Assembly (NCBI GenBank): GCA_964452935.1
Contig: CAYVNO010000003.1
Location: 18,163-82,162 of the forward strand
DNA length: 64,000 bases
DNA from: an uncultured Methanosarcinales archaeon
Lineage (GTDB): Archaea > Nanobdellota > Nanobdellia > Woesearchaeales > DSVV01
Direction of reading: 5' to 3'
Part shown: one piece after another, positions 9,689-46,708 of the stretch
How positions within the stretch are numbered: the first letter of the stretch is position 1
How the letters are laid out: each line of letters starts with the position of its first letter
Made by a program: the position numbers and the translations under genes
Notes under the pieces: model-generated
The model's input: only the letters and a program-made list of their open reading frames with translations
Database searches by the model: none
Told to the model about the DNA's origin: nothing

Positions 9689-9689
9689 C

Positions 9690-10688: not shown

Positions 10689-10689
10689 A

Positions 10690-17612: not shown

Positions 17613-17673
17613 AGAATAAACAATACTCTATGATTATATAAATATTACTATTAACAGAAGACATAAACACATG

Positions 17674-17812: not shown

Positions 17813-17863
17813 ATAACTTCTAATAATCTATAAAATAATAAACAAAACAACTAAAGAATCAAA

Positions 17864-18061: not shown

Positions 18062-18068
18062 TTTTAAA

Positions 18069-18883: not shown

Positions 18884-18884
18884 T

Positions 18885-19235
18885 TTATCCTATAATCCTC
18901 ACTTGTTTTCCTTTTGGATTTATTTTTACTAAATCTAATATAGATAACGCTTTTCCATTTGCTTTCTGTATTTTCTCTTTTGCTTGCGAAGAGAAATTAA
19001 ATGCAGCGACATTAACAGTATGATCAATATCTCCAGCTCCCAAAACTTTTCCAGGAACAACAATAGTTTCATTCTCTTTAGTAAATCTCTGTATTTTAGC
19101 TAAATTTACAATTCTTCTTCTAGAAGTAGGTTTTTCTAAATCACTTGCAACTCTTTTCCAAATCTTAGCACCCTCTTTATTTGAATGCTTCCTTAACTCT
19201 ATTACCAACATTTCTAGATATTTATTTGTTTTCAT
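18885..19235 (-). CDS. rpl18e: 50S ribosomal protein L18e
   Basis: 116 aa. Archaeal/eukaryotic L18e pattern and operon position. Confidence 0.9.
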   Translation of the reverse strand: MKTNKYLEMLVIELRKHSNKEGAKIWKRVASDLEKPTSRRRIVNLAKIQRFTKENETIVVPGKVLGAGDIDHTVNVAAFNFSSQAKEKIQKANGKALSILDLVKINPKGKQVRIIG

Positions 19236-20029
19236 TTGAGTTCTTTTACCTTGTCTGCAAATTCATCAAGAGTTTCATTAAATAATTCTACTCCTTTTCC
19301 AATAATGTCTCTTGCATTCAATTGGCCCCATGATTCTAAACTGAATATGAATGTATCTTCTCCTTTTTCTGCATAAACATCTCCATTTGTTAAATCTTTA
19401 CAAGCATCACATAATGTACATTTCAATAAATTATCTTGTACAACAGTCAGTTTCCCTTTTTTTAACTGGAAAATCTTTGCATGGCAACATTTAACAACAT
19501 CGTTTGCATTATCAACATCTTTTTTTATTTTAACATCTGATTTATGCTTATAAAAAACTAAGCCAGGACACCATTTAATGTGTTCTTTCCCAACTCCTAA
19601 AACAGCTGTTGCTTCAAACTCTATATCTTGATTTTTTAATAACTTAACAATAGGTGTGTCTGGATATGCTGGCATTACTTTAGGGTCTGCTGATTTAAGA
19701 TCTGACGCATAAATCACTTTTGGACCTTTTCCTTTCAATGTTAATTTGCATTGACATTGTGCACAACCTTTTCCTTCACACTTGCATTTTTTTAATAGGT
19801 TATATGACTTCAAGTCTGTCTTTAGGGGTATTAAACCCAACCTATGTGCAACAACTTCATCATATAATGCAGAGTTATTCTTCTTAAACTCAACATCTTC
19901 AATAGCCATTGTTGGTACTTTATTTATCAATACCCTCCTTATGCTATTTGCATATGCAGGAGTAATCCCTTTAACCATAAATGAAAGCTTTGTTTTATCC
20001 TTATTTTTTTCTAAAAGCCTTATTTCCAT
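19232..20029 (-). CDS. rpoD: DNA-directed RNA polymerase subunit D (Rpo3)
   Basis: 265 aa with Cys clusters (CKCEGKGCAQCQC, CTLCDACK) typical of archaeal subunit D with an Fe-S domain. Confidence 0.9.
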   Translation of the reverse strand: MEIRLLEKNKDKTKLSFMVKGITPAYANSIRRVLINKVPTMAIEDVEFKKNNSALYDEVVAHRLGLIPLKTDLKSYNLLKKCKCEGKGCAQCQCKLTLKGKGPKVIYASDLKSADPKVMPAYPDTPIVKLLKNQDIEFEATAVLGVGKEHIKWCPGLVFYKHKSDVKIKKDVDNANDVVKCCHAKIFQLKKGKLTVVQDNLLKCTLCDACKDLTNGDVYAEKGEDTFIFSLESWGQLNARDIIGKGVELFNETLDEFADKVKELK

Positions 20030-21797: not shown

Positions 21798-22289
21798 TTA
21801 AGTTCTTTTTGCTCTTAATATCCCTTTGACACTATGTACTAAAGATGTATCTATATTTGTATATGACACATCAATGTTTGCTTCAAGATCCCCAGATATT
21901 GCCATGTCTCCTCCGCAAACTATAGTGAATATAGCTTTCTCAGAAGGTTGGAATGGTGTAGTTGCAGTTAAATCAACAGAGTTATTACCCATAAGATTCA
22001 CACTTGTAACAGACAAAGTTGAACAATCTCCATCTCCAGTAATTGTTGCTCCAACATAATTCACAGGAATTCCTAAATCATTCTTAATAGCAAACTGAAT
22101 TTGTCCAGTATTAAAGTTTACAACAGGCTTATCAATGCAATCAAAACCAGCTACAAAAGCACATTTATCAGGCAATAACTGCCCAGGTTGAAGAATCCCA
22201 AAATAAGCTACAGCACCAATAGCTGCTAATACCACTAGAATTGCCCAGCCATAAGTCATCAGAAACTCCATAGCTGCCTGTCCTTTCAT
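21798..22289 (-). CDS. Archaeal type IV pilin (class III signal peptide), paralog 1
   Basis: Starts MKGQAAMEFLMTYGWAILVVLAAIGAVAYF, a class III signal of the form K-G/Q plus a hydrophobic helix. The start was set at the internal ATG 22289. It aligns along its whole length with the next ORF. Confidence 0.75.
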   Translation of the reverse strand: MKGQAAMEFLMTYGWAILVVLAAIGAVAYFGILQPGQLLPDKCAFVAGFDCIDKPVVNFNTGQIQFAIKNDLGIPVNYVGATITGDGDCSTLSVTSVNLMGNNSVDLTATTPFQPSEKAIFTIVCGGDMAISGDLEANIDVSYTNIDTSLVHSVKGILRAKRT

Positions 22290-22454
22290 TTGAAAATGTA
22301 ATTTTCTAATGTGCTCCAAAATCTTTGATTTTAGACATTTTAACATAATAATCACCTCTTTAAATATAATATAGAATTTATTGAAGTATTTATATATAAA
22401 TCTTGCTATTTAGTCATGACAAAAATAGAAAGATAAAAAAAATTAAAAATTTAT

Positions 22455-22949
22455 TTATGGTCTCTTTGCTCTCAATGCGCCTTTTGCAGTGTGTGTTAAC
22501 GATGTTTCTGTATTAACATATGTTAACTCAATATCACTTTCAAAGTCACCTGAGATACCTGATCCGCCGCCGCATGCAAATGTTACGGTTGCTTTTCCAC
22601 CTTGTTGGAGATCAGTGGTTCCTGTATAATCCAATGATGTGTTTACTGGATCAGTTACACTTGTTAATGATATAGTTTCACAATCACCGTCTCCTGTAAG
22701 TGTTGCTCCAATTGTATCAATTGGATAACCAACATCATTCCTGATAGCTAACTGTACAACACCTGTATCAAAGTTTACAACTGGTTTATCAACACAGTCA
22801 AAACTTGCAGGGAATGTACATTTATCAGGTAACAACTGACCTGGGTTTAACACACCGAAGTAAGCTAATGCACCAATTGCTGCCAATACTACTAGTATTG
22901 CCCAGCCGTAAGTCATCAGAAACTCCATAGCTGCTTGACCTTTTCTCAC
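22455..22949 (-). CDS. Archaeal type IV pilin (class III signal peptide), paralog 2
   Basis: Has (M)RKGQAAMEFLMTYGWAILVVLAAIGALAYF. A GTG at 22949 is preceded by GAGGTGAT. It shares Cys positions and a C-terminal ...GxLRAKR with paralog 1. Confidence 0.75.
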   Translation of the reverse strand: MRKGQAAMEFLMTYGWAILVVLAAIGALAYFGVLNPGQLLPDKCTFPASFDCVDKPVVNFDTGVVQLAIRNDVGYPIDTIGATLTGDGDCETISLTSVTDPVNTSLDYTGTTDLQQGGKATVTFACGGGSGISGDFESDIELTYVNTETSLTHTAKGALRAKRP

Positions 22950-23074
22950 AAATATCACCTCTTTTTTATACACTAATTAGCACGATATCATGCTTTTAAA
23001 CTATCTAACGTCATTTATCAACTACTTACTATATAAATGTTTCGATTATATATAGTAGTAGGGTATTTTGTATA

Positions 23075-24622
23075 CTAAAACATTCCGCCAAGCATTAAAC
23101 CAAGTATAAAATACCCGATTAGGTACGTAACTTGAGAAGTCACAATGAATATAGGGATATAATGTGCAGTCTCTTTAATATTGCCCTTTGTAATCGTTCC
23201 TACAATCATACTAGAGAATATTGCAGTTAATAATAAACTAACTCTTGAAAACCACTTATAATCACCTAGATTAATCCCTCCTTCTGTACTAACAGATAAC
23301 ATAAATGATCCTCCAGCAGTACTAGTTGTGTCCAAGTTGGCAGTAATACTATTAACAACTATCAACAAATGAGTTGATAAAGCAAACAACACAGGGGCAG
23401 CAACAATTGATGCAAACCCAATAAATATGACATATGTTGTAACATTCGCACTCATCTCTTTTTTCATCGAAGAAATCTCTTGTATGTTAATAGAAATTTT
23501 ATTTAATAAATCTCCAACATCTCCTCCTGCCTCTACTCCTTCAATAAGAATATCAATAGATCTTTTTAATATTGTAGAATCATATTTATTAGCAAATAAT
23601 TTTAAACTATCTTTCAAAGGTTCCCCACTCAATGTTCTTTTTGCAACCTCTTCAATCTCTTTAGCTAAAACACCAAATCTTGGCCTAACTGCAAACCACA
23701 ACGCTCTATCAATAGTCATCCCTGCCCGAATATTGGATGATGTAAGCTGTAAAAAATCAGGCAAAACTGCCTCAATGGCCAATCTTCTCTTGAATATTCT
23801 AATATCTACATAAATAACAAACGCCATCCATAAAACAATCAATGTAATTAAAAATACAGGAACCCAGATTATTACAGCAATTGCTATAACATATTTTATT
23901 GATTCTGCACTATGTGTGATAGAAAAATAAGCTAACTGATAAACTGTTATAATTCCCATCAAAATAATAACTAATCTAAAGATGTGTTTTGAAGCATGAT
24001 AAAAATCAAACGCATAATCTGCTTTTTCAAAATACCCATGCATCCTTCTAATCCTATCATGTTTAGTTATCTTTTGTTTTTGTACCTCAAATTTAATCTC
24101 TTTTTCTTCCTCTTCTTTATTTTCTCCTTTTTTCTTAAACATCCCTGCAACTTTTGCTACAACAGATTTCCTCCATAAAATTGGCTTCACTTCTTTCTTC
24201 ATGTCTTTTTCTTCATCACCTCCCTTAACAATGTTGTGAAGTCTACTCAACTCTTTCTTTAATTTGATCTTTCTTAAATCCAAATAAAAGAAAAATCCCA
24301 TCCACAACAACAGCAAAAACAAAACAAATGAGAGAATCCAAACAACTCCTACATAAACAGCAATATCTAAATAAGATTCAACACCTTCCATCATAAAAAA
24401 ATAAATCTCAAAGAGAGTTAGTGTCATGCTTAAAGCAATATCAGTAGATAATATTGCTTTTGAAACTTGGTCTGTTGTTAAAGGCAAACCTGCAGCATCA
24501 ATCATATGCTGTAATTTATCTCTACCAGCCTGCATCCTAGTGGGGGAAATAGCATTGAAAAACCTCCCAAAAAGTTTATACACATTATTCTCTTTATCTA
24601 TCTTTATCATTTTACATCTCAA
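23075..24622 (-). CDS. Type II secretion system F-domain membrane protein (FlaJ/TadC-like platform, large half)
   Basis: 515 aa, polytopic. Has a T2SSF-like block LPDFLQLTSSNIRAGMTIDRAL...GGDVGDLL. Confidence 0.8.
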   Translation of the reverse strand: MRCKMIKIDKENNVYKLFGRFFNAISPTRMQAGRDKLQHMIDAAGLPLTTDQVSKAILSTDIALSMTLTLFEIYFFMMEGVESYLDIAVYVGVVWILSFVLFLLLLWMGFFFYLDLRKIKLKKELSRLHNIVKGGDEEKDMKKEVKPILWRKSVVAKVAGMFKKKGENKEEEEKEIKFEVQKQKITKHDRIRRMHGYFEKADYAFDFYHASKHIFRLVIILMGIITVYQLAYFSITHSAESIKYVIAIAVIIWVPVFLITLIVLWMAFVIYVDIRIFKRRLAIEAVLPDFLQLTSSNIRAGMTIDRALWFAVRPRFGVLAKEIEEVAKRTLSGEPLKDSLKLFANKYDSTILKRSIDILIEGVEAGGDVGDLLNKISINIQEISSMKKEMSANVTTYVIFIGFASIVAAPVLFALSTHLLIVVNSITANLDTTSTAGGSFMLSVSTEGGINLGDYKWFSRVSLLLTAIFSSMIVGTITKGNIKETAHYIPIFIVTSQVTYLIGYFILGLMLGGMF

Positions 24623-25427
24623 CCGCCGGTCTAGAAGATTTTATGGCCGCATAAAACATGAATTGCAAAAACGCAATCAATCCAGCAAGTGTTAACAAAA
24701 ACGGAAGTCTTAACTCAAGACCAATAAATACAGCAAATATAATTAACATAGTTATACCTAAAGATGGAATAATAACAGCAATCATCATATAAAACATTGC
24801 CAAAGGATTTAATTTTCTACCATACTGTTCTACTTCAATTTGTTGTTCTTTTATAATCTGATTTAATGTTGCATTAAGAGAACCTTCAACATCTGCTCCA
24901 GTTCTAATAGAATTCAAAAGCTGCCAAAATATTCTTCTTAAACTATCGGATGGCACTAACTCTCCGACCTCACTAAGGGCATCCTCAAAACTAGTACCTA
25001 AATTAACTTTATCAACTATGGCTTTAAAATATCTTCCAATCTCTTTATATTCTCTTGCGATATTAACAAACACATCATAAATTGGCACACCACTTCCAAC
25101 TTCAATAAGTAAAAACCTAGTCGCAAAAACAATCTCCTTATTAACTGCTTTCTCTTTTTGTCTAATCTTAAAATCAGGAAACTTAAGTAGATAAAAAGTC
25201 ATTACAGTAAAACCAATCGGAAATAAAAGAAAAAGAAATTTTATTGAGATCTCTAAGGAATGTAACACTGGGGCAAGAAACAAAATAAAAAAACCAAACG
25301 ATATCATAAACGAAGTCATTATAGTTTTTTTAATAAAAACATGAGGTGAATCACTCATCTCTGCTTGAGCAAGTTTAAATTTTAGATTAGGCATACTAAG
25401 AGCTATCTTTCTATAAATAACATTCAT
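24612..25427 (-). CDS. Type II secretion system F-domain membrane protein (FlaJ/TadB-like platform, small half)
   Basis: 271 aa. Has a T2SSF-like block FATRFLLIEVGSGVPIYDVF...IRTGADVEGSL. It overlaps the downstream gene by 11 nt. Confidence 0.8.
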   Translation of the reverse strand: MNVIYRKIALSMPNLKFKLAQAEMSDSPHVFIKKTIMTSFMISFGFFILFLAPVLHSLEISIKFLFLLFPIGFTVMTFYLLKFPDFKIRQKEKAVNKEIVFATRFLLIEVGSGVPIYDVFVNIAREYKEIGRYFKAIVDKVNLGTSFEDALSEVGELVPSDSLRRIFWQLLNSIRTGADVEGSLNATLNQIIKEQQIEVEQYGRKLNPLAMFYMMIAVIIPSLGITMLIIFAVFIGLELRLPFLLTLAGLIAFLQFMFYAAIKSSRPAVEM

Positions 25428-25492
25428 TACTTGTTCACCCCTTCTTTAATCGTTTGTGTCACACCCATCCTTAATGTAGGGGCGGGACACGA

Positions 25493-27133
25493 TTATAACC
25501 CTTCTCTAAAATCTGCAGGAACCTTATTTGACCTAACTAATTTCATTAAGTTACTCTGATTAGTATAATATTCTGCCATTACTCTTCCTACTTGATCTAC
25601 TCCTTCTAAATTATTTTTTACAAGGTATTTTAACACATCAGATTTCCCATGAAGTGCCTTCTTAATTTCTTTTGGAGTATCACCTGTGTATAATTGAAGA
25701 GTACTTAACAATGATTTTGATTTATTTGTATTCACTAACACGTCCTTTTTTGCATTATACTGCATAAGTAAATTTGTTCTTGAATCAGGTAGAATTTCTG
25801 CAACCTGGAACGTCCTTCTGATACCTGATCTTCTATTTCTGAACTGTACAATTACCATAGAGATTGCAGGCAATAGTGATTCAGGAACATTAATCGGCGG
25901 ATGAGTTAATCTATTAATGGTCTCGTTTACATTATTAGCGTGGAACGTTGCATAACAACTATGGCCTGTATGAATAGCTTCAAATAATGTTTCTGCTTGT
26001 TTCTGTCTTCTAATCTCACCAACTAAAATTCTATCTGGTCTCATTCTTAATGAATTAACTAACAAATCTTCCATAGAAACTTCTCCCTTTCCTTCAGGAT
26101 TTGGTTGTCTAGTCTGCATAGGTACCCAATGTAAAAATTTTGGAAGTCTCAACTCCCTAGTATCTTCAATAGAAACAACTCTCTGATTAGGTGGAATAAA
26201 ACTTGCAAGTACATTTAATGTAGAAGTTTTACCTGAAGCAGTTCCTCCGGTTATCAAAGCACTCATCTCATACTGCATAGCCATCCATATTAATGCAGCA
26301 GAATCCACACTTATTGTTCTGAATTTTAAAAACTTAGTAATTGTAAACGGATCTCTGGAAAACATTCTTATTGTTATTGTGTTTCCTCCTGAAGAAATAG
26401 GCATCAATGTAGCATTAACCCTATCTCCTTGTCCCAAATGAGCATCTAACAATGGCTCTAAGACTGTTAACTGTCTTCCAACTTTTCTCCCAATCATAGA
26501 TGCATAATTCTTTATCTGATCTTCATTCTCTATCTTTAATGTTGTTTTCAACCATCCATGTTTTTTATGATAAACCCAAATATACTCTCCTGCAGAGTTA
26601 ATAGTTATCTCTTCTAACTTAACATCATGCATAAGGATATCAATAGAACCAAGACCTAAACTTTTCTGTGCAAGGTATGTTGTCAAATATTTCCTTGTTG
26701 CTTCATCGACATCTGGAAAATACTTCTGGATAAGGACATAAATTGCGTCATGAAATTTCTCATCAACAACATTTGTTTTTTTCAACTCAGTTATATCGAT
26801 CATGCCCAAACTTACTTCACTAACTAACTTCTTCCTTATTCTCTCAAGAATCATCTCTGTTGTTTTAGAAATACTTGCAATATGAACACTATATGTTGGA
26901 ACAAACTCGTTAGGTTTTAAAATAACCTTAATATTTATCGGCATATTATCAGAATTAAAGGAATATTCATCAATAACCTTTTCTTTATTTACTCCACCTT
27001 GTTTTCCAACAGCTTTTACCTTCCTGACAACCACTACCTTCTTCTTTGATTTAATCTTTACTTTCTTCTTTCTTTTAACAGTCTTACCCTTAGTTTTTTT
27101 GGGTTTACCCTTACCTCTTTTTTTATTCTTCAC
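25493..27133 (-). CDS. Type IV pilus/archaellum-family assembly ATPase (FlaI/PilB/VirB11 superfamily)
   Basis: Has Walker A GGTASGKTSTLN, SIEDTREL and LVGEIR motifs, plus a Lys-rich N-terminal extension. Length is 546 aa. Confidence 0.9.
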   Translation of the reverse strand: MKNKKRGKGKPKKTKGKTVKRKKKVKIKSKKKVVVVRKVKAVGKQGGVNKEKVIDEYSFNSDNMPINIKVILKPNEFVPTYSVHIASISKTTEMILERIRKKLVSEVSLGMIDITELKKTNVVDEKFHDAIYVLIQKYFPDVDEATRKYLTTYLAQKSLGLGSIDILMHDVKLEEITINSAGEYIWVYHKKHGWLKTTLKIENEDQIKNYASMIGRKVGRQLTVLEPLLDAHLGQGDRVNATLMPISSGGNTITIRMFSRDPFTITKFLKFRTISVDSAALIWMAMQYEMSALITGGTASGKTSTLNVLASFIPPNQRVVSIEDTRELRLPKFLHWVPMQTRQPNPEGKGEVSMEDLLVNSLRMRPDRILVGEIRRQKQAETLFEAIHTGHSCYATFHANNVNETINRLTHPPINVPESLLPAISMVIVQFRNRRSGIRRTFQVAEILPDSRTNLLMQYNAKKDVLVNTNKSKSLLSTLQLYTGDTPKEIKKALHGKSDVLKYLVKNNLEGVDQVGRVMAEYYTNQSNLMKLVRSNKVPADFREGL

Positions 27134-27142
27134 TTTTTGTAC

Positions 27143-28291
27143 CTAAATCTTTCCCGATACAATGCAAACCAATTTAAACAATTTACTTTTTAACGACTTC
27201 TTTTTCTTATCAATCTCGTTAAATCTCTTCTCTAACTCCCTGATATGTTTCTTTACATCTGTACTCTTAGATATTAAGTTAAATGCAACAGCTTTTTTTA
27301 TAAGATCATTTAGATCTTTCTTCATATTATTTCTTTCTGATTCTACTTCTTTAATCATATTCTCAATCTTATTCTTTTTATCAAAGAGTTTCTTAAATCT
27401 AGTAATGACCTTATTATAACTGCCAACTTTCACATCTATCTCATTCTGTTTATCAATTATTTTCCCTAAAACCTCTTTTTTAATATCATTTATTTTCTGT
27501 TTATGTTGTTTACTCTCTTCAACTAAAGGATCAAGAGACCCTTTCCTTTTCTCGATAGTATTTTCTATATTTGTTGCTAATTTTTCTAATTTAGTTATAT
27601 GATTTTCACTTACATCTATTTTCTGATCCTCTTTTTTAATAATCTCTTTTAATCCTTCAATCTGTTTGCTAAATTCTACAACCCTTTTCTTTAATTTCTC
27701 TTCATAATCTTTTAATGAGTCTAAATCCTTTCTTTCTTCCAGCAAATGATCTTTCTCTATATTTATTTTATCTAATAAATCAACATATTTTTTTTGCTCA
27801 GAGAAAACCATCTTATCAAAATCGCCCATCTTTTTCTTAAAGAATTCTTGCTGTTGTGATACTCGTTTATCGACATTTCTCTTAAATTTTTCATAGTCTT
27901 CTAGTTTTACTAATTCATCTTTGACCATCTCGATCTCTTTACCTACCTCTTTTTTCAAATCAGAAAACTGCTCTTTTAAATCAGTCAACCCTTTTGTGTC
28001 TTTATCTAATTTATGAATACTGGATTCAATCTTTCTAACAAATGCATCTTTATTACTGTGGAACTCTTTAGTCTTTGTTACTACCTCTTTTTTGGTTAAC
28101 TTTCTTTCAACAAGAAATGTTTTAGATAGATTATAATCAATACTAATAAGTCCTTCTTCTTCAAGAAAATCAGCCCATTCTTCAACAACTACTTTTGAAA
28201 CACCTAGTTTCTTAGCAGCTTCCCCTATTTCTATCTTCTTCTTGTCTTTGATAATGTGAACTAACTTATCAACACCTGTTTCTATCTTCAT
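27143..28291 (-). CDS. Coiled-coil protein with N-terminal winged-helix-like domain (pilus-locus associated)
   Basis: The N-terminus IGEAAKKLGVSKVVVEEWADFLEEEGLISIDY is followed by about 300 aa of K/E-rich heptad-like sequence. Confidence 0.5.
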   Translation of the reverse strand: MKIETGVDKLVHIIKDKKKIEIGEAAKKLGVSKVVVEEWADFLEEEGLISIDYNLSKTFLVERKLTKKEVVTKTKEFHSNKDAFVRKIESSIHKLDKDTKGLTDLKEQFSDLKKEVGKEIEMVKDELVKLEDYEKFKRNVDKRVSQQQEFFKKKMGDFDKMVFSEQKKYVDLLDKINIEKDHLLEERKDLDSLKDYEEKLKKRVVEFSKQIEGLKEIIKKEDQKIDVSENHITKLEKLATNIENTIEKRKGSLDPLVEESKQHKQKINDIKKEVLGKIIDKQNEIDVKVGSYNKVITRFKKLFDKKNKIENMIKEVESERNNMKKDLNDLIKKAVAFNLISKSTDVKKHIRELEKRFNEIDKKKKSLKSKLFKLVCIVSGKI

Positions 28292-28400
28292 CTATTTCCC
28301 ACCTTCCTTTTATAATAGCATTAATCCTATTAATATCTAATAAAATGAATTTTCTACTATTATTTCAACTATTACCATTTATATATCTTTCTATATTATT

Positions 28401-28544
28401 GGCAAAGTCAACTAATGTGTGGTGGCGTCAGCCGTCACCAGGACCAGCGTTTGCAAATGCAAACCTGGTCGACGCTGACGTGGTCGGGGGACGCCCCCTT
28501 TGGGGTGACCCGTAGCCGCCAAACACACTTAACTTGACTTTGCC
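28401..28544. ncRNA. GC-rich long-helix-closed structured element E3
   Basis: GGCAAAGTCAA...TGTGTGGTGGC pairs with GCCGCCAAACACA...TTGACTTTGCC, about 25 bp with bulges. The core contains the nested hairpin GTCAGC(C)GTC..GACCAG..GTTTG-CAAATG-CAAAC..CTGGTC..GACGCTGAC. It also contains competing GGGGG-ACG-CCCCC and CCCC-TTT-GGGG pairings. It is far more GC-rich than its surroundings. Confidence 0.45.
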
Positions 28545-28613
28545 CAGTATATTAACCTAAATAAGAAATACACCAAACAAAACATATCAATAATCACTCA
28601 GAAGGAGCACCCA

Positions 28614-29609
28614 TCAAGGAATTGCAAGATCTCTAACATCATACAGATCTAAATGTGCATCACTATCATTAATCTGGATATCATCTAACTTAAACCAACT
28701 ATATGTGTTATTAATTAAATAACTGGTTGTGTCTTCACAAGAATCATTAAAATAAACAAAATCAACAATACTGCACTCATCTTTTATAACAATCCCATAA
28801 CCTTCAAGACTCTCAAACTCTTGTAAATTGACAAGACTTTCAATTCCGTACGGAGATGGATCAAGTCTTCCTTCTATCCTATACAAATAACTTGGAGAAA
28901 TATTTGAAGCAATAAACAAAGTGTTACTCATATGGTTGATTAAATTACTCATACCATCATCACCTACAACAAAATCAGTAACATTAGCTCGTTGTATTGT
29001 TTTAATTATTCCTCCATTACTATTAACTAAATATAATGGATCTTCAAAATCAGTTATATCTATATTAGAAATGATTGTACTATTCCTCTGCCACTCTGCA
29101 GTCCCTTTTGTATCTGTTATATTCAACATTACATCAATCTCAATAACAATTCTCCAGGGCGTTTCATGCATAACTCTAATATTCAAGATTTCATACTCTA
29201 AATCAATTAGTAATTCTTCTGCCTTTTCTCCTATTCTTTCTATCCATTCATTCATCTCTGCATCATCAATAACATCTACATAATCTCCATCCATTGTTCC
29301 ATTCATAACCAACTCTTCAAATGTACTATTCAAATTTGTTACAAACTCGCCTGTCTCAGTCATCTGTTGCTGTAACCCGAGCAAAGCCCTAAAAGAAGCA
29401 ATATATAATCCTCTCGAAATATCTCTCTCTAAATCTCCAATAAAATTATCAACAGAGTTTACCCTCGCCTCGACAGGTAATCTTTTTTCTTTTAATCTTG
29501 TTTCTGTTTCAATAGTTAAACCATAAATTACAACTGATAATAATATTATGCTGATGATGGTAAACAAAACCGCTTTTTTATTTTTCATTACTCTCATTTT
29601 TATTGCCAC
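28614..29609 (-). CDS. N-terminally membrane-anchored extracellular protein (possible minor pilin-like)
   Basis: Starts KNKKAVLFTIISIILLSVVIYGL. It overlaps the upstream giant gene by 10 nt. Confidence 0.45.
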   Translation of the reverse strand: MAIKMRVMKNKKAVLFTIISIILLSVVIYGLTIETETRLKEKRLPVEARVNSVDNFIGDLERDISRGLYIASFRALLGLQQQMTETGEFVTNLNSTFEELVMNGTMDGDYVDVIDDAEMNEWIERIGEKAEELLIDLEYEILNIRVMHETPWRIVIEIDVMLNITDTKGTAEWQRNSTIISNIDITDFEDPLYLVNSNGGIIKTIQRANVTDFVVGDDGMSNLINHMSNTLFIASNISPSYLYRIEGRLDPSPYGIESLVNLQEFESLEGYGIVIKDECSIVDFVYFNDSCEDTTSYLINNTYSWFKLDDIQINDSDAHLDLYDVRDLAIP

Positions 29610-32600
29610 GCCCTAAACTCAATTACTGATGGCCCCCATAAATAAGGTATTCTCTCGACAGCTAAAGTCTCTATAATTAAATCACTTGACTCAAAGTTCA
29701 AATAAACTCTTCCATCTTGATCAAAATCAAGATAATTAAATAAATTGTATGCAGCTTCATCATATGAATCTGTCGAGTCATAAGATATGCTACTGCTTGT
29801 ATAATTGCATGTTTTGTTCCCAGTATAATTTGTCGGAATTAAAATATTTGTAGTAGAACCGTCATCAAATTCAACTTCCCAACTGCATCCAATCCCTAAC
29901 GGCAAAACAGTGCTATAAGGAAGAGAAATATTCAACAAGTTAATCAACCCAGTGTACATAAATGAATCATTTATTGAACATAAACCGGTGTTTGTTCCAT
30001 TAACACCTAAACTAATTCCTAAATCATTATTCCCTCCAACAAAAACGTCAGGATCAATATTAACAATAAACGGATCCCCTAAATCAGTATAATCAGAACC
30101 AAAACCACTAAGATTAAATATATTATTTGAATTTACCTCTACAAAGTTTGTCCAATATGATCCAGAATAAGATGTAAACTTCGACTCAATTACTCTAACC
30201 TCTTCTGGAATATCAACACTAGGACTACACGAATCAGTAAATGATCTTTCTTCAAAATAAATTGGCATCTCACCATATTCAAGAGTCGTCAAAATCCTGG
30301 AGTAATTCAATAAAATATATGAATCAGAATAAAGTGTGTTTTCACTAAAATTCCCACTAACAGTTATAACTTGTGCTTCTTGCTCGACAAACATATCAAC
30401 CATGCTCTCTGCAATATCTTGATAAATCTCTTGCAAACCACTAACATTATCACTCTGATAAAAATGACTTGAATTATCACAATCAGCAATAGACTGTAAA
30501 GTAGATGTATCTGCACTCGCACTAAACGCAACAGCATAAATACTAATATTATAATTTGTATGGGCATAACATGCAAAATCAATAGCCTCTTGTTTTGAAT
30601 TACTTGACCCACAACTACCACTCCACCCATTATTATCCATTAAACCGTCATCAGGCCCATGACATCTATTTGCTTCTCCATCACTCATAACAAGCATCGC
30701 CCTTACTCTCCCACTTGAATTTGCTTTCAATTCCAAATCAAACTTCGCACTAGTTGAATCATTATTATACAATTTAACAGCCATAACATTATCTCCTTCA
30801 ACAAGATAACTTTTGTTAACAAAAACATCTCTATTCCAATAACTAGCATTATGTACAGTTGTATCATTATCGATTAAATTTCCATTCAAATAAACCTCTG
30901 CTCTGTCGTCAGAATAAACATATAAATCCATATCAGATAACACATCTAAATCCTCAACTTCAAAATGATCTCTGAAATATAAATCTCCTACATTATTTCT
31001 TACAGAAAACAAAATATTATCAAAATAAAAATATCCATACTCCCAATACCAACTTCTATCCAACTTTCCACCAAAATCTAAATAATAATAACCTGGTCCT
31101 TCAATCCATTCTGAAACATCCTGTGAAAAACTATCACTAAAATCATTGTCAGGATTATTTTCTGTATCAATCTCAAAAGTACCATCACTATGTGAATGCC
31201 CACTATCAAGAGTTGAACCTAGATAATGTGTTCCTGAAGTAGGACTTGTCCACCTTCCTTTAATCCAAACCTGATCAGAACTCTCAAAATAAGGATTTCT
31301 TCCATCCCATTCATAATCAAATGAAACTAACGCAACAGCTCCACTACTGATTAAGTCATAAGCCTCTTGAGTGATATTAATTTGTATACCATAAGCAGCA
31401 GAAGTATCATAATAATGAGTACTATATTGCCTCAATCTTCCTGAAACAACACCATCATTCTGTCCATTAGAATAATCATAAATCCCTGTATCCCAATCCC
31501 ATCCGTCGTCCGTATATGCATCTAATGATCCTATAAATGTATTTACACTAGAATTAATTCCTGACGTAAAATCAACTTCTGGAGTTGAACTATCTGCAGC
31601 CATGTCCCATAAATTTAGATAAGTGTTTGTTGTATTAACTTCAGTATCAACACCAGTACCAAAACCTAACACAACACTACCTGCACTCCAATTACTGTCA
31701 TCAAACCCACTCTCTGTCCAATTACTTGGTGGAGAAACATATTGATAATCTGAATTATAAAGCCATGTATCATTTTGTAACTCTACTTGAATTTCTGATA
31801 ATAATAACTGTGTTGCAGAGTAAATTCCACATGAAATACATGTTGCTCCAGTTGCAGAATATCCTTCAATATCATCTTCTAACGCTTCAATATCTGTAGT
31901 TAAAGAAGTATTCTCGTTAGCATAATATGCATAACTTACTAAACCAACCCTATTTCCTGTAACATTTTCAAGAACATTCCTAACAAAATCTTTAGCAACA
32001 CATTTAGCAACACTCATTCTGCTTGTACTATCTTCTTCCAAATCAGCATCATCACAATCTCTTGTATAACCATAATTATTATTATCCATTCTCCACGCCA
32101 TACTTCCACTCTCATCAGTTATAAGTACAGCATCTCCTCTACCTTCTCCTCCAGCAACAACCTGTTGAAATGAAAGATTTTCAAACCCAAGTCTCAAAGG
32201 AAGTGTGCTACCATTTATACTATTATAATCCAAAATTGAAGAAAGATTAGAATTATTTATTGTCGTAGTTACAACACCGCTAGTCCCTCTATCCTCATAA
32301 ACAGTTGTATTCCCTATATTCAAAAAAAGAACATTAGATGTATTACTATTATTAATCTCATAATGTAAATATATTTCCATATTATTTAACTCACCAGGAA
32401 CATACATCGAAGAATACAAGTTAATAATTCCTATAATCCCTGGAAAATAATAATTATGCGAATTAAAATCTCTTGAATATAATTCACTCGTACTATATTC
32501 AATTTTAATAAATCCTCCTCCGATATATGACTCATTTAGTGAACCCTCAAAGTCAACTGTAAAATAATTATCTGTATCAGAAATCAGCGACTCATTACAA

Positions 32601-33334
32601 CTCATTAAATCAAATCTCTCGGCAACAATTGCAGACTCATTAGATGTATTAACATCAATATTCATACAAAAATCTCCGTTAATATAAAAATCAAAATCAG
32701 CTCCAGAATCAATCTCAATCTCTAACTCTTCTATTCCAGTAAATGTAGGCAAATCAATAAATTTTGTAATATTTCCTTCCCCTTCAAAACCACCAAAATA
32801 AATATATTCCACTCTAGATTGTTCGTCCATCTCTGCTAAATAAATTCTAGAACTTGTTCCCCTTATCGGTCTTGCAAGAGCTATCCCACTAATTAAAGAT
32901 TTAGAACTTACTAACTCTTTTGCTTCATCTGAATCAGTTGTATTAAACGAATATATCTCAGACTCTTCAGCAAACATTCTCAAACCCATATTTCTTGGAA
33001 GTATCCCTTCTGTAACATTACTTGCAATTGCTAACGCCATCTCAGTATTATTCTCCGCCCACAAATAACCAATCTGTTCAATAACAGAAATGTTTAATTC
33101 AGTAATTACTCCTTCATTAATTAATTCAATAACATAAGGATTTTTACACTCCCCTATTTTTGTATTTGCAAAATAATTAGTAATGTCTTCTGAGATATAA
33201 GAGACTTGTTTATTGGGTTGTGTTTCAATATAAGTAATCTTTGAGATGATTATTATCCCCATAATTAAAAGTGTAAGACCTAAAATAGCATCAATCGTAA
33301 AAATAAACCCTTTCCTTGATTTATTCATTCCCAT
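29600..33334 (-). CDS. Giant pilin-like surface protein with split von Willebrand A domain (candidate tip adhesin)
   Basis: The N-terminus SRKGFIFTIDAILGLTLLIMGIII is class-III-signal-like. It has the vWA MIDAS motif DAVLITDESGSM and a distal LVMSDGEAN...IYAVAFS, separated by about 365 residues. There are very many N-x-S/T sequons. Confidence 0.75.
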   Translation of the reverse strand: MGMNKSRKGFIFTIDAILGLTLLIMGIIIISKITYIETQPNKQVSYISEDITNYFANTKIGECKNPYVIELINEGVITELNISVIEQIGYLWAENNTEMALAIASNVTEGILPRNMGLRMFAEESEIYSFNTTDSDEAKELVSSKSLISGIALARPIRGTSSRIYLAEMDEQSRVEYIYFGGFEGEGNITKFIDLPTFTGIEELEIEIDSGADFDFYINGDFCMNIDVNTSNESAIVAERFDLMSCNESLISDTDNYFTVDFEGSLNESYIGGGFIKIEYSTSELYSRDFNSHNYYFPGIIGIINLYSSMYVPGELNNMEIYLHYEINNSNTSNVLFLNIGNTTVYEDRGTSGVVTTTINNSNLSSILDYNSINGSTLPLRLGFENLSFQQVVAGGEGRGDAVLITDESGSMAWRMDNNNYGYTRDCDDADLEEDSTSRMSVAKCVAKDFVRNVLENVTGNRVGLVSYAYYANENTSLTTDIEALEDDIEGYSATGATCISCGIYSATQLLLSEIQVELQNDTWLYNSDYQYVSPPSNWTESGFDDSNWSAGSVVLGFGTGVDTEVNTTNTYLNLWDMAADSSTPEVDFTSGINSSVNTFIGSLDAYTDDGWDWDTGIYDYSNGQNDGVVSGRLRQYSTHYYDTSAAYGIQINITQEAYDLISSGAVALVSFDYEWDGRNPYFESSDQVWIKGRWTSPTSGTHYLGSTLDSGHSHSDGTFEIDTENNPDNDFSDSFSQDVSEWIEGPGYYYLDFGGKLDRSWYWEYGYFYFDNILFSVRNNVGDLYFRDHFEVEDLDVLSDMDLYVYSDDRAEVYLNGNLIDNDTTVHNASYWNRDVFVNKSYLVEGDNVMAVKLYNNDSTSAKFDLELKANSSGRVRAMLVMSDGEANRCHGPDDGLMDNNGWSGSCGSSNSKQEAIDFACYAHTNYNISIYAVAFSASADTSTLQSIADCDNSSHFYQSDNVSGLQEIYQDIAESMVDMFVEQEAQVITVSGNFSENTLYSDSYILLNYSRILTTLEYGEMPIYFEERSFTDSCSPSVDIPEEVRVIESKFTSYSGSYWTNFVEVNSNNIFNLSGFGSDYTDLGDPFIVNIDPDVFVGGNNDLGISLGVNGTNTGLCSINDSFMYTGLINLLNISLPYSTVLPLGIGCSWEVEFDDGSTTNILIPTNYTGNKTCNYTSSSISYDSTDSYDEAAYNLFNYLDFDQDGRVYLNFESSDLIIETLAVERIPYLWGPSVIEFRAWQ

Positions 33335-34482
33335 GCATAAACCACCATTGAAATTGGTTCTCCCTTATAATTTACTAATCTTATCATTTTAACAACATTG
33401 TCTCTCTGAACATTTTCCATTGAAATATTTCCTCCGAAATGATTTATCTGCACAAATCTTTCTGAAGCATCATACAGAATATATTGAAAGTCTGTTTCTC
33501 CTCCATTATTAAACTCTGTCTGAAAATTACAAAAATAATAAACAGTACCGTTTCCATACTCCCAGCTAGCAATTGCTGTCTCTCCAGAATTATCATACTC
33601 AGCAAGTATCTGGAAATTACTAGCATTAGGATCTCCAACATAAGAACTATCGACAGCATAACCGTCAGAACAATTCATTGTATCCCCTATCTCAAGATCA
33701 AGATACTGGTCTAACGCAGTAACAGTAACTCCTCCAGTTCCAGAAGACTCTTGACTATGACGAACTCCAAACAAATTAGTTCCACTCTGGAACATCTTAT
33801 CTGAGATAAAAACATTTCCTCCTCCATAAACATAATCTTCAACCTGTTCTTGTTGGTCTGGGGAACCATCAGTTAATTCTGGAGATTCCATTATAATAAA
33901 ATCATAATCACTGATTGTATTAAGATTAGTAACAACAGATGTATTAAATTCGTCAACATTAATGTTAAAGTTGTTATTATCATAATGATTAAATAAGTAA
34001 TTCTGTTTTGTATCTCTATAATAATAAGCTAAATTAAGATCACTGGCATTAGACTCATAATTAACATCACTCTCTCCAATGTAGTAAGTTCCATTAATGT
34101 TTCTCAAATTTCCATTTGTATCAACAAAAAACACAACAAACTCAGATCTAATCCCAAGTAAATTCTTTGCAGAGTCATAATCAGCATTAGCAAAATTCTT
34201 AAATCTACCAACTAACGTCTCATTCAAATAAGAACCATTGCTAACAACCCCTATCTTAATAACATCAACAGCAGTCCAGTTATAGGGAAGACCAGGGGTC
34301 ATTAAAGATTCAACAATAAACTGCGAATCAAGGTAAATGTCATCCATAGCATTTAACTCTTGGTTATTGACATTAGGGAGATAAATAAAATAAATCACTA
34401 TCATAATTGAAAATACAATTACTGCAACAACAAAATCCATATACCATGCCTGCCCTATTTTTCCCTTAATCATATTCATCAC
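33325..34482 (-). CDS. Pilin-like protein (class III signal-like N-terminus), 385 aa
   Basis: Starts IKGKIGQAWYMDFVVAVIVFSIMIVIYF. Operon context supports the call. Confidence 0.55.
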   Translation of the reverse strand: MMNMIKGKIGQAWYMDFVVAVIVFSIMIVIYFIYLPNVNNQELNAMDDIYLDSQFIVESLMTPGLPYNWTAVDVIKIGVVSNGSYLNETLVGRFKNFANADYDSAKNLLGIRSEFVVFFVDTNGNLRNINGTYYIGESDVNYESNASDLNLAYYYRDTKQNYLFNHYDNNNFNINVDEFNTSVVTNLNTISDYDFIIMESPELTDGSPDQQEQVEDYVYGGGNVFISDKMFQSGTNLFGVRHSQESSGTGGVTVTALDQYLDLEIGDTMNCSDGYAVDSSYVGDPNASNFQILAEYDNSGETAIASWEYGNGTVYYFCNFQTEFNNGGETDFQYILYDASERFVQINHFGGNISMENVQRDNVVKMIRLVNYKGEPISMVVYAWE

Positions 34483-34490
34483 TAAAATTT

Positions 34491-34883
34491 TTATGTATTC
34501 AAATAGATAGTTCCATTAATCTTTCTAACAATATTATCCCCTTTTTGTACATTCCCGACAATGTAAGGGATGTGAAATACCTCTTCATAATCTTCCCCAC
34601 TAACAACTAGTTTATTACTAGCTAAAATAGTGATGGTATATGTTATCATATCTGACTGTTCAGGGATGTTAAATGTCCTAATGTATCCATCATGAACTCC
34701 TGCAGCTAACACTAACTCTCCTTGAACAAAAAACCCCACGTCATCCATTGCCTCTTTTCTTTTCTCTCTAACTCCGTCTCTTAAATCACTAGCAATAAAA
34801 CTAAGTAAAATTACAGCAATTATGAATATAACACCAATGAACATAAAAAATTCTGGCGTAACTTGGCCTTTTTTCATCCCCAC
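34491..34883 (-). CDS. Small pilin-like protein (class III signal peptide)
   Basis: Starts MGMKKGQVTPEFFMFIGVIFIIAVILLSF. Confidence 0.6.
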   Translation of the reverse strand: MGMKKGQVTPEFFMFIGVIFIIAVILLSFIASDLRDGVREKRKEAMDDVGFFVQGELVLAAGVHDGYIRTFNIPEQSDMITYTITILASNKLVVSGEDYEEVFHIPYIVGNVQKGDNIVRKINGTIYLNT

Positions 34884-34910
34884 CCTCCTTTTAAAACTAA
34901 TTTAATAAAC

Positions 34911-35327
34911 TCAGTTATAGACTAACACATCATTCTCTCTAGCTTCAATATTTATGAACTGAAAACCAGCATTCGTTGTCAAATTTTCAGTAATATTAAC
35001 CAAACAAACATTTGGGATCTCTGTTACACTATCTCCTGCCATTACATCAAAAATGAGTGTATTATTAATAAAATAAATATCTTCCACATATTTAGGCATA
35101 TAAACTTTCAATCTTGTTTTAGACGGCTCACCCAAATAAAAAACAGATTCAGCAGAATCACAAATCTTTCTCAAAATAATCTGAGCCTGATTACTATTTA
35201 CTTTTATATCTAAATCACTTTTCTCATTAGCATAAATAAGCAATAAAGGAATAAGCAATAATACAGAGAAACCTATTATAACCATATACTCTAAACTAGC
35301 TTGACACCTCTTTTTCCTTACTACCAT
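34911..35327 (-). CDS. Small pilin-like protein (class III signal peptide)
   Basis: Starts MVVRKKRCQASLEYMVIIGFSVLLLIPLLLIY. It is the first gene of the block. Confidence 0.6.
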   Translation of the reverse strand: MVVRKKRCQASLEYMVIIGFSVLLLIPLLLIYANEKSDLDIKVNSNQAQIILRKICDSAESVFYLGEPSKTRLKVYMPKYVEDIYFINNTLIFDVMAGDSVTEIPNVCLVNITENLTTNAGFQFINIEARENDVLVYN

Positions 35328-35492: not shown

Positions 35493-36506
35493 ATGAAAAA
35501 AAGAATATTGTTTCCAAAGAATAAACAAAAACAATTTTTAGAAAACACAGTATCCAATCTGGATATAACTTGGCAGGATTTAGCAAAAAAAATGGATGTG
35601 AACATAAACACATTCTCTAAAACATATAGATTTGAAAAATCCAGAATACCTGAAAAGATATTTCTAAAATTATGCAGCCTACTCAACGCAGATAGCAAAG
35701 AAATTTTAAAATTATACAATGGGAAGATCACAAATGATGGAAACATTAGGATCAGAAAAGTGTTGGGTGAAACAAGAACAAAAATAAATAATATCAAGAT
35801 AACATTCAGGAATTGTGATGACTCATTAGAAATAAGAAATATAAAATATTCAAATGCTGACAGAGAAAAGAACCTACTTCTTCCTAATAAATTAACTGTT
35901 GAATTAGCAGAGGAGATAGGGATGCATATTGGTGACGGTTACTTGTCCGGGAAGAAGAATGATTACAGATTAAAAGGCAATAAACATGATGAAAAAGAAT
36001 ATTACAACACCCATGTAAGAAATTTATACAAAAAATTATTCAATCTAAACATAAAAATAAAAGAGTATGATTCAACATATGGTTTTGAGGTTTATTCAAA
36101 GGCACTACATGAATTCAAATCAAATGTACTGAAATTGCCAAAGGGAAGAAAATCAGACATAAGGATACCTGAGAAAATTAAAATAAATAATTCTAAAATA
36201 TTGGCTTCTTTTTTGAGAGGATTATTCGATACCGATGGTAATATTTACTTCCAGTCTAGGTATGGTTATAGACATTATTATCCTAGGATATCCGTAGCTC
36301 AAAAATCAGAAAAACTTATAAAAGAAGTGGCATTAATACTCAAAATGTTAGGTTTCAGGCCATCAATATATGTTGGCAAGGAAGCTACGAGCGTTAGCCT
36401 ACATGGATACAATTCCTTGAAACACTTCATGGATATCGTTGGATTCAATAACCCAAAACACTTGAAAAAAGTGAGGAAATGGGAGGAAATGTATCCCAAA
36501 ATTTAA
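35493..36506 (+). CDS. Free-standing double-motif LAGLIDADG-family protein with N-terminal HTH-like region
   Basis: Two LAGLIDADG-type motifs: LAEEIGMHIGDGYLSG and LASFLRGLFDTDGNIYF. It is not inside an intron or intein. Its stop lies 1 nt before the tRNA gene. Confidence 0.7.
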   Translation: MKKRILFPKNKQKQFLENTVSNLDITWQDLAKKMDVNINTFSKTYRFEKSRIPEKIFLKLCSLLNADSKEILKLYNGKITNDGNIRIRKVLGETRTKINNIKITFRNCDDSLEIRNIKYSNADREKNLLLPNKLTVELAEEIGMHIGDGYLSGKKNDYRLKGNKHDEKEYYNTHVRNLYKKLFNLNIKIKEYDSTYGFEVYSKALHEFKSNVLKLPKGRKSDIRIPEKIKINNSKILASFLRGLFDTDGNIYFQSRYGYRHYYPRISVAQKSEKLIKEVALILKMLGFRPSIYVGKEATSVSLHGYNSLKHFMDIVGFNNPKHLKKVRKWEEMYPKI

Positions 36507-44656: not shown

Positions 44657-44658
44657 TT

Positions 44659-46686: not shown

Positions 46687-46708
46687 ATTTACCACCTTCG
46701 CCTATTTT

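Follow-up and report, generated by a model that had tools for sequence, protein, structure and literature searches.

The question addressed here is what kind of machine is encoded by the 11 open reading frames (ORFs) that span positions 35327 to 21798, all on the minus strand, in a 64,000-nt stretch of contig CAYVNO010000003.1 from an uncultured archaeon assigned by GTDB to the Woesearchaeales. This AT-rich stretch (~33% GC) is called the window below, and all coordinates refer to it. Our analyses make it probable that these genes form a complete type IV pilus locus of a Woesearchaeota-type DPANN archaeon, comprising an assembly motor, major pilins, and a probable adhesive tip module. The system is not archaellar in character and is best read as an adhesive pilus that mixes Epd- and Tad-like traits with a PilY1/PilB-like modular tip adhesin built around a von Willebrand factor A (vWA) domain. 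A first annotation made from the letters and ORFs alone (the sequence-only reading) had described a co-directional minus-strand locus with tiny gaps or overlaps, and all 11 ORFs lie where it placed them. Three junctions overlap (33325-33334, 29600-29609, and 24612-24622), three gaps measure 8 to 27 nt, one measures 65 nt, and two are of ~100 nt. The sole large gap, of 322 nt, separates the gene for a 331-aa pilin-like protein (p331) from that for a 382-aa coiled-coil protein (cc382) and contains a GC-rich element.

Assembly motor and major pilins

The 546-aa product of 25493-27133 (minus) is an assembly ATPase of the T2SSE / FlaI-PilB-TadA superfamily. It matches PF00437 (T2SSE) with an E value of 2.7e-35 and 122 bits, against a cut-off of 24.9, and shows a weak match to PilB3_C, a domain recorded in many of its homologues. 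Among solved structures, the best matches are afGspE of Archaeoglobus (2oap; 5e-66), FlaI of Sulfolobus (5e-60), and CpaF of Caulobacter (3.5e-49). Its best NCBIfam match is the FlaI equivalog model NF058587, which it nevertheless fails (265 bits; cut-off, 550), and it also fails the TadA model TIGR03819 (196 bits; cut-off, 373). The protein starts with a lysine-rich tail of 53 aa (26975-27133). Throughout the family (homologues P0002 to P0119) this tail is variable in sequence and consistently basic, with a length of 22 to 113 aa and a median of 34% lysine plus arginine. An exact copy of the ATPase is present on an ENA metagenome scaffold. There is a single ATPase in the locus, as in the Tad and Aap systems.

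The platform is divided between two genes, each encoding one T2SSF domain. PF00482 (T2SSF) matches the 271-aa protein (24612-25427, minus), which is predicted to be polytopic, with an E value of 8e-16, and the 515-aa protein (23075-24622, minus), which has seven hydrophobic segments and an extra N-terminal membrane and charged region, with an E value of 7e-15. The former aligns with positions 39-240 of the 484 residues of UpsF, that is, with its N-terminal half, and the latter with positions 277-554 of the 555 residues of ArlJ/FlaJ, the C-terminal half. Since the two proteins align with the first and second halves of known platform proteins, the interpretation as a split platform is right. The FlaI/PilB-type ATPase and the two T2SSF-domain genes named in the sequence-only reading pass their Pfam thresholds. 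The split that it remarked on is real but not peculiar to this locus, as 58 of 59 loci of the family have a pair of platform genes behind the ATPase gene. Loci of archaeal clade 1, and many of clade 2, have been described as carrying two tadC-like genes (PMC4858521), and two platform genes define "system 1," a grouping that a recent preprint reports from methanogens, Thermococcales, and DPANN archaea (10.64898/2026.04.22.720090).

Directly upstream of the ATPase gene is that of cc382 (27143-28291, minus), a cytoplasmic protein without a transmembrane (TM) segment, and a homologue occupies the same place in 56 of 71 loci. A clear, long coiled coil is combined with a conserved N-terminal motif, IETGVDKL...AAK.LGVS...EWA.FLEEEG. 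Of the winged helix-turn-helix (HTH)/coiled-coil assignment made from sequence, the coiled coil holds, while the HTH part is suggested only by Pfam matches below threshold (among 15 orthologues, 8 match DeoR and 5 match HTH_24). A profile search of the PDB returned generic coiled-coil matches only. The protein is probably a scaffold or a regulator.

The ATPase has more than 7300 relatives at an E value of <= 1e-20, and the top 120, all at least 61% identical, belong where named to Woesearchaeota, Nanoarchaeota, or Nanobdellota. A scan of one genome per GTDB species gave at least 569 relatives, from which the best 80 loci were taken, nearly all of them from DPANN metagenome-assembled genomes; synteny was assessed by BLAST of the 11 window proteins against all ORFs of the fetched loci. 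The order that recurs is the 138-, 130-, and 385-aa pilin-like proteins, a giant protein, p331, cc382, the ATPase, the N- and C-terminal platform halves, and then at least one pilin. For the five upstream genes, the count was limited to the 44 loci of Woesearchaeota and Nanoarchaeota whose upstream flank extends for 9 kb or more. Of these, 32 have four or all five of the genes in co-directional arrangement, and 3 have part of the set. The comparison with related genomes that the sequence-only reading had proposed thus shows a shared gene order. The locus consists of two modules, tip and motor/major pilin, usually but not always fused in one cluster, because the order is conserved in most loci and the tip set is absent from its usual place or inverted in some.

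Two further arrangements were observed among the fetched loci. L043 and L058 carry a second, more divergent and partial copy that adjoins the first (~15000-19300, minus). Its products include counterparts of the giant protein and of p331, an ATPase (52% identity), and two T2SSF proteins. A conserved SpoIIM-like protein with eight TM segments (PF01944; E value of 2e-11 for the L030 copy) is encoded at ~1800-3500 in L030, L031, L034, and L054, ~7 to 8 kb upstream of the ATPase in these four loci without an adjacent tip module. In L064 the corresponding gene lies downstream of the locus (~17146-18162).

The locus ends with two tandem major pilin genes. The ORF of paralogue 1 (172 aa; 22455-22973, minus) has a likely start near 22949 and the N terminus RKG/QAAMEFLMTYGWAILVV, in which, as below, the slash marks the predicted cleavage site. 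That of paralogue 2 (185 aa; 21798-22355, minus) has a likely ATG start at 22289 and the N terminus MKG/QAAMEF. The two are 65% identical to each other, and such tandem pairs are common in orthologous loci. Identity of the major pilin to its nearest relative is 92%, and the family has 5660 detectable members, some of which are labelled UPF0333 in JGI records. The mature N terminus, QAAMEFLMTYGWA, is almost invariant in this family, and Q5, E9, F10, and a YGW motif are invariant in the alignment. An AlphaFold2 model of the major pilin from 83 sequences (mean predicted local distance difference test [pLDDT] score of 84) has a helix at residues 4-30 followed by a beta-sandwich, the mature protein being ~155 aa long and the sandwich domain ~130 aa. 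Its top Foldseek matches are the archaellins 9eq7 and 5z1l (Halobacterium and Methanococcus; E value of 3e-4), with FlaF/FlaG also found. A pilin architecture is thus predicted for the major subunit, and the structural check proposed in the sequence-only reading agrees as far as this protein is concerned.

Pilin-like proteins upstream of the motor

An N terminus was counted as class III-like if, among its first 45 residues, [KR][GASC] preceded a stretch of strong hydrophobicity. Seven of the 11 locus ORFs, namely the five upstream proteins (p331 included) and the two tandem pilins, fit this rule, against 1 of the 50 other ORFs of the window (Fisher p = 5.7e-6); the sequence-only reading had listed five such N termini. 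Furthermore, the cleavage-site motifs are family specific, and each is kept in ~42 to 67 orthologues. The sequence-only claim that these N termini fit prepilin-peptidase substrates is consequently borne out by both enrichment and conservation. Outside the locus, the sole ORF fitting the rule is 1274-2413 (plus), with QVDKA/ANLAIKILVPGAVAVGVV at residue 34.

The five upstream families differ in the details of the motif. The minor pilin-like protein mp138 (138 aa; 34911-35327, minus), first in the conserved order and with a single N-terminal TM segment, begins with KKRC/QASLEY (Q+1, S+3, E+5, Y+6); the orthologue motif [KR][GAS]/Q[VA]S[ML]EY is kept in 42 loci. Its E-Y pair recalls the bacterial Flp motif. 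For the next two proteins, the assignment comes from the ORF and the orthologue motif. The minor pilin-like mp130 (130 aa; 34491-34883, minus) has KKG/QVTPEFF (Q+1, E+5) and the motif /Q[IV][AS]xEF, found in 43 loci, and the pilin-like mp385 (385 aa; 33325-34482, minus) has KIG/QAWYMDF (Q+1, W+3, D+6) and the motif /Q[AV]W[YST]xD[FY]. The giant protein starts with RKG/FIFTIDAIL, for which the orthologue motif is [KR][GA]/[FVIY][FY]F[ST][IL]DA. p331 (28614-29609, minus), assigned like mp130 and mp385, starts with KNKKA/VLFTIISIILL, without an acidic residue near the predicted cleavage site, and the motif of its 48 orthologues, [KR][GAS]/[IVFM][FV][FY]T, has no acidic residue either. It had been called an anchored protein from sequence; the N-terminal hydrophobic segment is present, but the N terminus is also pilin-like. 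Q+1 and E+5 occur together in four proteins (the two major pilins, mp138, and mp130), and Q+1 occurs alone in a fifth, mp385. The combination is the signature of the EppA-processed pilins of Methanococcus maripaludis, and E+5 is reportedly absent from the pilins of Sulfolobus and Haloferax (PMC3875500).

The putative giant modular pilin-like adhesin (1244 aa; 29600-33334, minus) dominates the upstream set. Pfam recognizes its VWA domain in two pieces, residues 403-512 and 925-972, and returns no other match; the domain is interrupted by a jelly-roll insert of ~370 aa. Judged from the residues of the metal ion-dependent adhesion site (MIDAS), D407-x-S409-x-S411, T498, and D885, all of which are invariant among 46 homologues, the split vWA domain is intact. 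From the N terminus onward, an AlphaFold2 model of 1200 residues (pLDDT, 80) predicts a helix (residues 6-33), a small region of helices, domains rich in beta structure, the vWA domain into which two jelly rolls are inserted, and C-terminal beta domains. The class III-like N terminus and helix 6-33 are both present and conserved, and a globular pilin module was not identified. Foldseek matched the model to carbohydrate-binding jelly rolls (BcsB, accessory domains of beta-galactosidases, the sugar-binding domain of Fbs1, and a carbohydrate-binding module of a xylanase). It matched the vWA domain to Mfa5 (6tnj; probability of 1.0), as did the family profile (E value of 3e-8). The family comprises 191 matches of 818 to 2031 aa, among which accessory domains (DUF2341, Laminin_G_3, MAM, pentaxin, GH16-like, and the beta-galactosidase jelly roll) are swapped. 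The pilin-like vWA protein noticed from sequence is thus joined by an invariant MIDAS and by lectin-like jelly-roll domains.

A hypervariable adhesin insert was also considered in comparison with the closest relative and was rejected, as identity is 70% in the insert and 68% overall. In this comparison, conservation is highest in the vWA domain, and no segment is hypervariable.

N-glycosylation sequons exceed the compositional expectation two- to threefold in four of the five tip-module proteins, the giant protein (42 observed versus 18.5 expected), p331 (9 versus 2.9), mp385 (10 versus 5.1), and mp138, and only there; the cytoplasmic and membrane parts of the locus show no such excess. A homologue of the STT3/AglB oligosaccharyltransferase is encoded in the window at 58078-60669. 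An extracellular, glycosylated location of the tip proteins fits both the sequon enrichment and this AglB homologue.

The remaining upstream proteins have few recognizable relatives in curated collections. mp138 and mp130 belong to no Pfam or NCBIfam family. Orthologues of mp385 occur in a short (~170 aa) and a long (~380 aa) form, and its Pfam matches to the ThuA and GH42M folds stay below threshold. The p331 family comprises 1014 clusters at 50% identity, and its 150 best listed members have a uniform length of 275 to 345 aa except for two longer proteins; no match was found in PDB or Pfam profile searches. Neither the p331 family nor the cc382 family is described in the literature searched.

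Alternative readings and known systems

We infer leader cleavage and filament formation, as well as adhesion and a tip location, and the proposed mechanism would run as follows. A class III signal peptidase (PibD- or EppA-like), encoded elsewhere, would remove the short basic leaders after [KR][GAS], and the single ATPase with its two-protein platform would extrude a filament of the QAAMEF pilin. The five upstream proteins would assemble first as a priming complex and stay at the pilus tip, where the MIDAS-containing vWA domain and the lectin-like jelly rolls of the giant protein would bind a surface or a partner cell. Two bacterial models suggest the tip placement by analogy, namely the priming complex that PilY1 forms with minor pilins and PilB, a modular vWA pilin (PMC7541494, PMC8179133). 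As regards the sequence-only proposal of an adhesion pilus instead of an archaellum, its second half stands, given the failed FlaI cut-off and the lack of fla genes in the locus and the scanned flanks; its first half, adhesion by way of a tip complex, is inferred.

Several observations weigh against this reading. None of the seven pilin-like proteins is matched by a pilin or class III model of Pfam or NCBIfam, the models of these collections cover neither major pilin paralogue, and a one-by-one scan of 83 major-pilin homologues gave no match to such models either. Pilin status consequently rests on the motif, its conservation, and the structure model. The Pfam check that had been suggested is therefore positive for the T2SSE and T2SSF models and negative for the Class_III_signal/DUF361-type pilin models. 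The residue at position -1 of mp138 is Cys in the window and Gly, Ala, or Ser in the orthologues. The TM-scores of the Foldseek matches to the major pilin are low (~0.3), because helix and head are oriented differently from those of the matches, and modelling covered the major pilin and the giant protein only. Furthermore, the tip set is not co-directionally upstream of the motor in 9 of the 44 loci and is inverted in at least one (L021). Finally, a hydropathy screen of ORFs of at least 90 aa found no Peptidase_A24-like protein in the 64-kb window, the only polytopic membrane proteins outside the locus being the AglB homologue and a 794-aa BatA/VWA-like protein; the absence of a prepilin peptidase had already been noted from sequence. 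In L068, one of the ~80 related loci, a gene with Peptidase_A24 and Arc_PepC_II domains adjoins the orthologous cluster. Such a peptidase exists in the lineage and is probably encoded elsewhere as a rule.

Among the alternatives to an adhesive pilus, the first is a short pseudopilus or bindosome-like surface system that would serve substrate capture or secretion instead of forming a long filament. Here the ATPase and platform would place surface proteins with processed class III leaders, the giant protein among them, near the membrane and arrange them there. The preprint cited above proposes that binding proteins with class III signals, and bindosome-type functions of type IV filament machineries, are widespread in archaea (10.64898/2026.04.22.720090). 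The richness of the giant protein in carbohydrate-binding-like jelly rolls would suit this role, and the ATPase partially matches the bindosome BasE model. However, the score of that match (133 bits) falls far short of the cut-off of 1000 and is lower than those obtained with the FlaI and TadA models, and the locus has no linked genes for ABC transporters or substrate-binding proteins. The conserved and abundant tandem major pilins, with 5660 family members and an archaellin-like architecture, suit a filament subunit instead. We regard a bindosome-like system as improbable.

Quite improbable, too, is a Com- or Ups-like pilus that would mainly take up DNA or exchange it between cells. In archaea, a type IV pilus with one ATPase can serve in DNA exchange, as the Ups system of Sulfolobales does (PMC7064770), and pilin-like genes of ultra-small cells have been linked to uptake of extracellular DNA in metagenomic papers (PMC9938205). 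The strongly basic N-terminal tail of the ATPase family points the same way, but this tail is cytoplasmic and sits on the ATPase, not on a pilin. Moreover, inspection of the locus and of its conserved neighborhood revealed no ComEC, DprA, or further genes for DNA translocation, and a MIDAS-containing vWA domain with lectin-like jelly rolls is typical of adhesins that bind proteins or glycans.

It is also conceivable, though very unlikely, that the five upstream proteins are ordinary membrane-anchored surface proteins whose anchors stay uncleaved and that are merely co-located with a simple pilus. The lack of pilin-model matches for all five would agree with this, as would the absence of Q+1/E+5 from the 331- and 1244-aa proteins and the loci in which the tip module is inverted or, in 9 of 44, not co-directionally upstream. 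Against it, a basic and a small residue directly before the helix, kept in dozens of orthologues, correspond to class III and not to Sec geometry. In 32 of 44 loci the five accompany the motor, their order is fixed, and stop codons overlap the following start codons; their arrangement parallels the bacterial tip sets of minor pilins and PilY1 or PilB (PMC7541494, PMC8179133).

The chance that the locus encodes an archaellum, a motility apparatus, is next to nil: JGI labels several ATPase homologues "archaeal flagellar protein FlaI," the FlaI model is the best NCBIfam match, and archaellins are the top pilin folds, but the FlaI score is under half of the cut-off, the pilins lack an archaellin Pfam domain, archaella have neither a platform from two genes nor a vWA adhesin, and no ArlC/D/E, F, G, H, or X and no chemotaxis genes are present in the locus or the scanned flanks or listed in the syntenic loci. 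The scan covered the locus proteins and the flanking genes, and it agrees with the sequence-only statement that archaellum accessory and chemotaxis genes are absent. The combination of a FlaI-type ATPase with adjacent fla genes, which that reading had named as decisive against an adhesion pilus, was accordingly not found, with 265 bits versus 550 for the ATPase and no such genes in the flanks.

With the adhesive pilus as the preferred reading, the locus can be placed among known systems. As in the Epd pili of M. maripaludis ("system 1"/clade 1), the platform derives from two genes and several minor pilins accompany an adhesin-like protein. In both, the leader ends in a small residue followed by Q+1 and E+5 (here in the major pilins, mp138, and mp130). 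In contrast, the major Epd pilin lacks a globular domain, being an Flp-like peptide of 74 aa, whereas a beta-sandwich is predicted here. The Epd genes are distributed over at least four loci, including that of the peptidase EppA, whereas here all but the peptidase lie in one cluster, and the Pfam DUF361/Class_IIIsignal model matches none of our proteins. The euryarchaeal clade 2 or "system 2" pili (PilB3-PilC3 with PilA pilins of Haloferax volcanii; afGspE) resemble the locus in that afGspE is the best structure match of the ATPase and in the weak PilB3_C match. A few Nanoarchaea were placed in clade 2 by Makarova et al. (PMC4858521), and system 2 loci are reported to include large adhesin-like proteins. 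However, Haloferax pilins lack E+5, the haloarchaeal-type Pilin_N model does not match the proteins of the window, and PilB3 loci often lack pilin genes, whereas the pilins are encoded in cis here.

Likenesses to bacterial systems are also evident. The Tad/Flp system shares the single CpaF-related ATPase (3.5e-49), the platform of two one-domain T2SSF proteins, a motif of the type G/xxxxE[YF] (QASLEY in mp138), and a vWA-containing pilin-like partner, as for TadG (Makarova 2016, PMC4858521). It differs in that no secretin, TadZ, or TadD is encoded in the locus, the TadA cut-off is failed, the major subunit is not a short Flp peptide, and no TadE/TadG-type N-terminal domain was detected by Pfam in the giant protein. 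The PilB (Streptococcus sanguinis) and PilY1 sets share a bulky vWA domain with a functional-looking MIDAS, a pilin-like N terminus, and accompanying minor pilins (PMC7541494, PMC8179133), and in them, too, a tip location has been proposed and extra structures are inserted around the MIDAS. They differ in having a bacterial N-methylation motif instead of an archaeal class III leader, the protein here is much larger (1244 aa) with jelly rolls in and around the vWA domain, and the beta-propeller of PilY1 has no counterpart in it. The homology indicated is that of the vWA fold. Mfa5 of the type V pili of Porphyromonas gingivalis provides the closest solved vWA domain and is an adhesive pilus-tip/accessory protein. 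The likeness is limited to this domain. Type V pili are an entirely different assembly system, which works by protease-mediated strand exchange.

Type IV pilus genes have been widely noted in DPANN archaea (PMC9938205), and DPANN loci with two platform genes and a PilY-like adhesin are already modelled in the preprint (10.64898/2026.04.22.720090). Consequently, the kind of system is already known, and the locus is a lineage version of a known machine. What seems to be undescribed is the five-gene tip set, the giant adhesin with its split vWA domain, the HTH/coiled-coil partner of the ATPase, and the large families without a curated model.

GC-rich element, flanks, and lifestyle

The large gap between the two modules holds a palindromic structured element of 144 nt (28401-28544), recognized by its composition and fold z-scores. 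GC content reaches 0.70 against a background of ~0.33, which makes it the strongest GC island of the window, and its predicted folding is much more stable than that of shuffled sequence (z-scores of -6.3 for the minus strand and -8.2 for the plus strand). The element is bounded by perfect 11-nt terminal inverted repeats (GGCAAAGTCAA/TTGACTTTGCC) and occurs once in the window. It gave no Rfam match in gathering or E-value mode and no tRNA by ARAGORN. In the closest syntenic loci, L002 and L004, the element is absent and the gap is ~80 bp. Since it is missing there, it is not part of the machine but a lineage-specific palindromic insertion between the modules; the sequence-only reading was correct about a structured GC-rich element and mistaken in counting it as a component of the locus.

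A metagenome scan for the terminal repeats retrieved 11 loci, of which L006, L007, and possibly L015 share the extended ends and the length. The rest look like chance matches or unrelated repeats. The elements of L006 and L007 have the same length and the same extended ends (GGCAAAGTCAAGTTAAKTGT ... TTGACTTTGCC) with differing interiors, in unrelated contexts: the L006 copy follows the gene for aEF-1beta, and the L007 copy follows a Pcm gene. The L006 copy is preceded, at a distance of ~14 nt, by a TATA-like box and is followed by a T-run. L083, a Nanoarchaeota single-cell genome, has at 3664-3847 a GC-rich palindrome whose core is that of the window element and whose arms are GCAAAGTCAAGG/CCTTGACTTTGC; it immediately precedes the opening gene of the orthologous pilus operon. 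This operon thus adjoins two of the few copies known, which may or may not be a coincidence. The element reads as a member of a family of mobile or independently transcribed structured elements of DPANN genomes.

Other candidates for this element were discarded. Readings as attC-like, 5S-like, or tRNA sequences were dropped for lack of a cassette context, an Rfam match, and a T-loop, and the interiors of the three aligned elements were too poorly alignable for a covariance model. A scan of viral contigs with the 16-mer end gave 25 matches, which is about chance level by a rough estimate, with no exact right arm. In three related viral contigs a right-arm-like match (at most two mismatches) lies ~250 nt away and was taken as coincidental. 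Elsewhere in the window, a second GC-rich intergenic structured element at 46707-46813, unrelated in sequence to the first, has a 12-bp closing stem (AGCACTACTGC/GCAGTAGTGCT), a fold z-score of -6.1, and no meaningful Rfam match.

The locus is flanked downstream by S13-S4-S11-RpoD and upstream by a LAGLIDADG/HTH gene and TatD. The former upstream gene (35493-36506, plus), divergent from the first pilus gene, encodes a free-standing LAGLIDADG_3 protein with an N-terminal HTH; a gene for a double-HTH regulator takes its position in L002, the closest syntenic locus. Farther away, the 794-aa membrane protein (61562-63946) is BatA-like with VWA_2 and Ig-like domains. Next to it, 61256-61522 (minus) is probably a tRNA gene with large noncanonical introns. 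The 5' acceptor GGGGTTG, a stretch resembling a D-arm, and the T-arm CTGGGTTCGAATC can be recognized, with ~85 nt between this T-arm and its partner CCCAG plus the 3' acceptor CAACCCC-A. ARAGORN predicted no tRNA in the window, and Rfam gave nothing at these positions even at an E value of <= 1. The only Rfam family to reach its gathering score in the window is the archaeal signal recognition particle RNA (2471-2740, plus; 142 bits).

The sequence-only reading had further argued from a compact genome toward a host-attachment apparatus, and this argument finds no support. At 5783-12229 and 42118-46534 lie genes for thiamine biosynthesis (ThiL, ThiC, ThiH, and ThiE) and a LysW-type set for lysine/arginine biosynthesis (LysX, ArgC, [LysW]-aminoadipate kinase [LysZ], and LysJ/ArgD), and a relative with the same locus has it on a 1.84-Mb contig. 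A minimal DPANN symbiont would be expected to have less biosynthetic capacity than this. The pilus may attach to a host cell, and attachment to a surface or to biofilm cells is equally compatible with the evidence.

Our understanding of how type IV pili work is unchanged by these findings. Woesearchaeota and related lineages are abundant but have not been cultured, and a life in attachment to other cells is widely assumed for them. Rather tentatively, the locus may represent a distinct, DPANN-wide subtype of archaeal type IV pilus, not formally described, that would be the main organelle of partner-cell attachment in Woesearchaeota. Such a subtype would be defined by a fixed five-gene tip module centered on a giant adhesin whose vWA domain is split by interchangeable lectin-type domains, by an HTH/coiled-coil partner of a basic-tailed ATPase, and by a major pilin family of more than 5000 members without a curated model. 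If this were true, the variable insert of the adhesin would set partner specificity. In any case, the pilin, p331, and HTH/coiled-coil families can be used as hidden Markov models to improve the annotation of DPANN genomes. Moreover, the locus provides a concrete, conserved parts list for a likely contact organelle, and these parts are targets for metaproteomics, cryo-electron tomography, co-localization by antibodies and fluorescence in situ hybridization, and glycan-binding assays.

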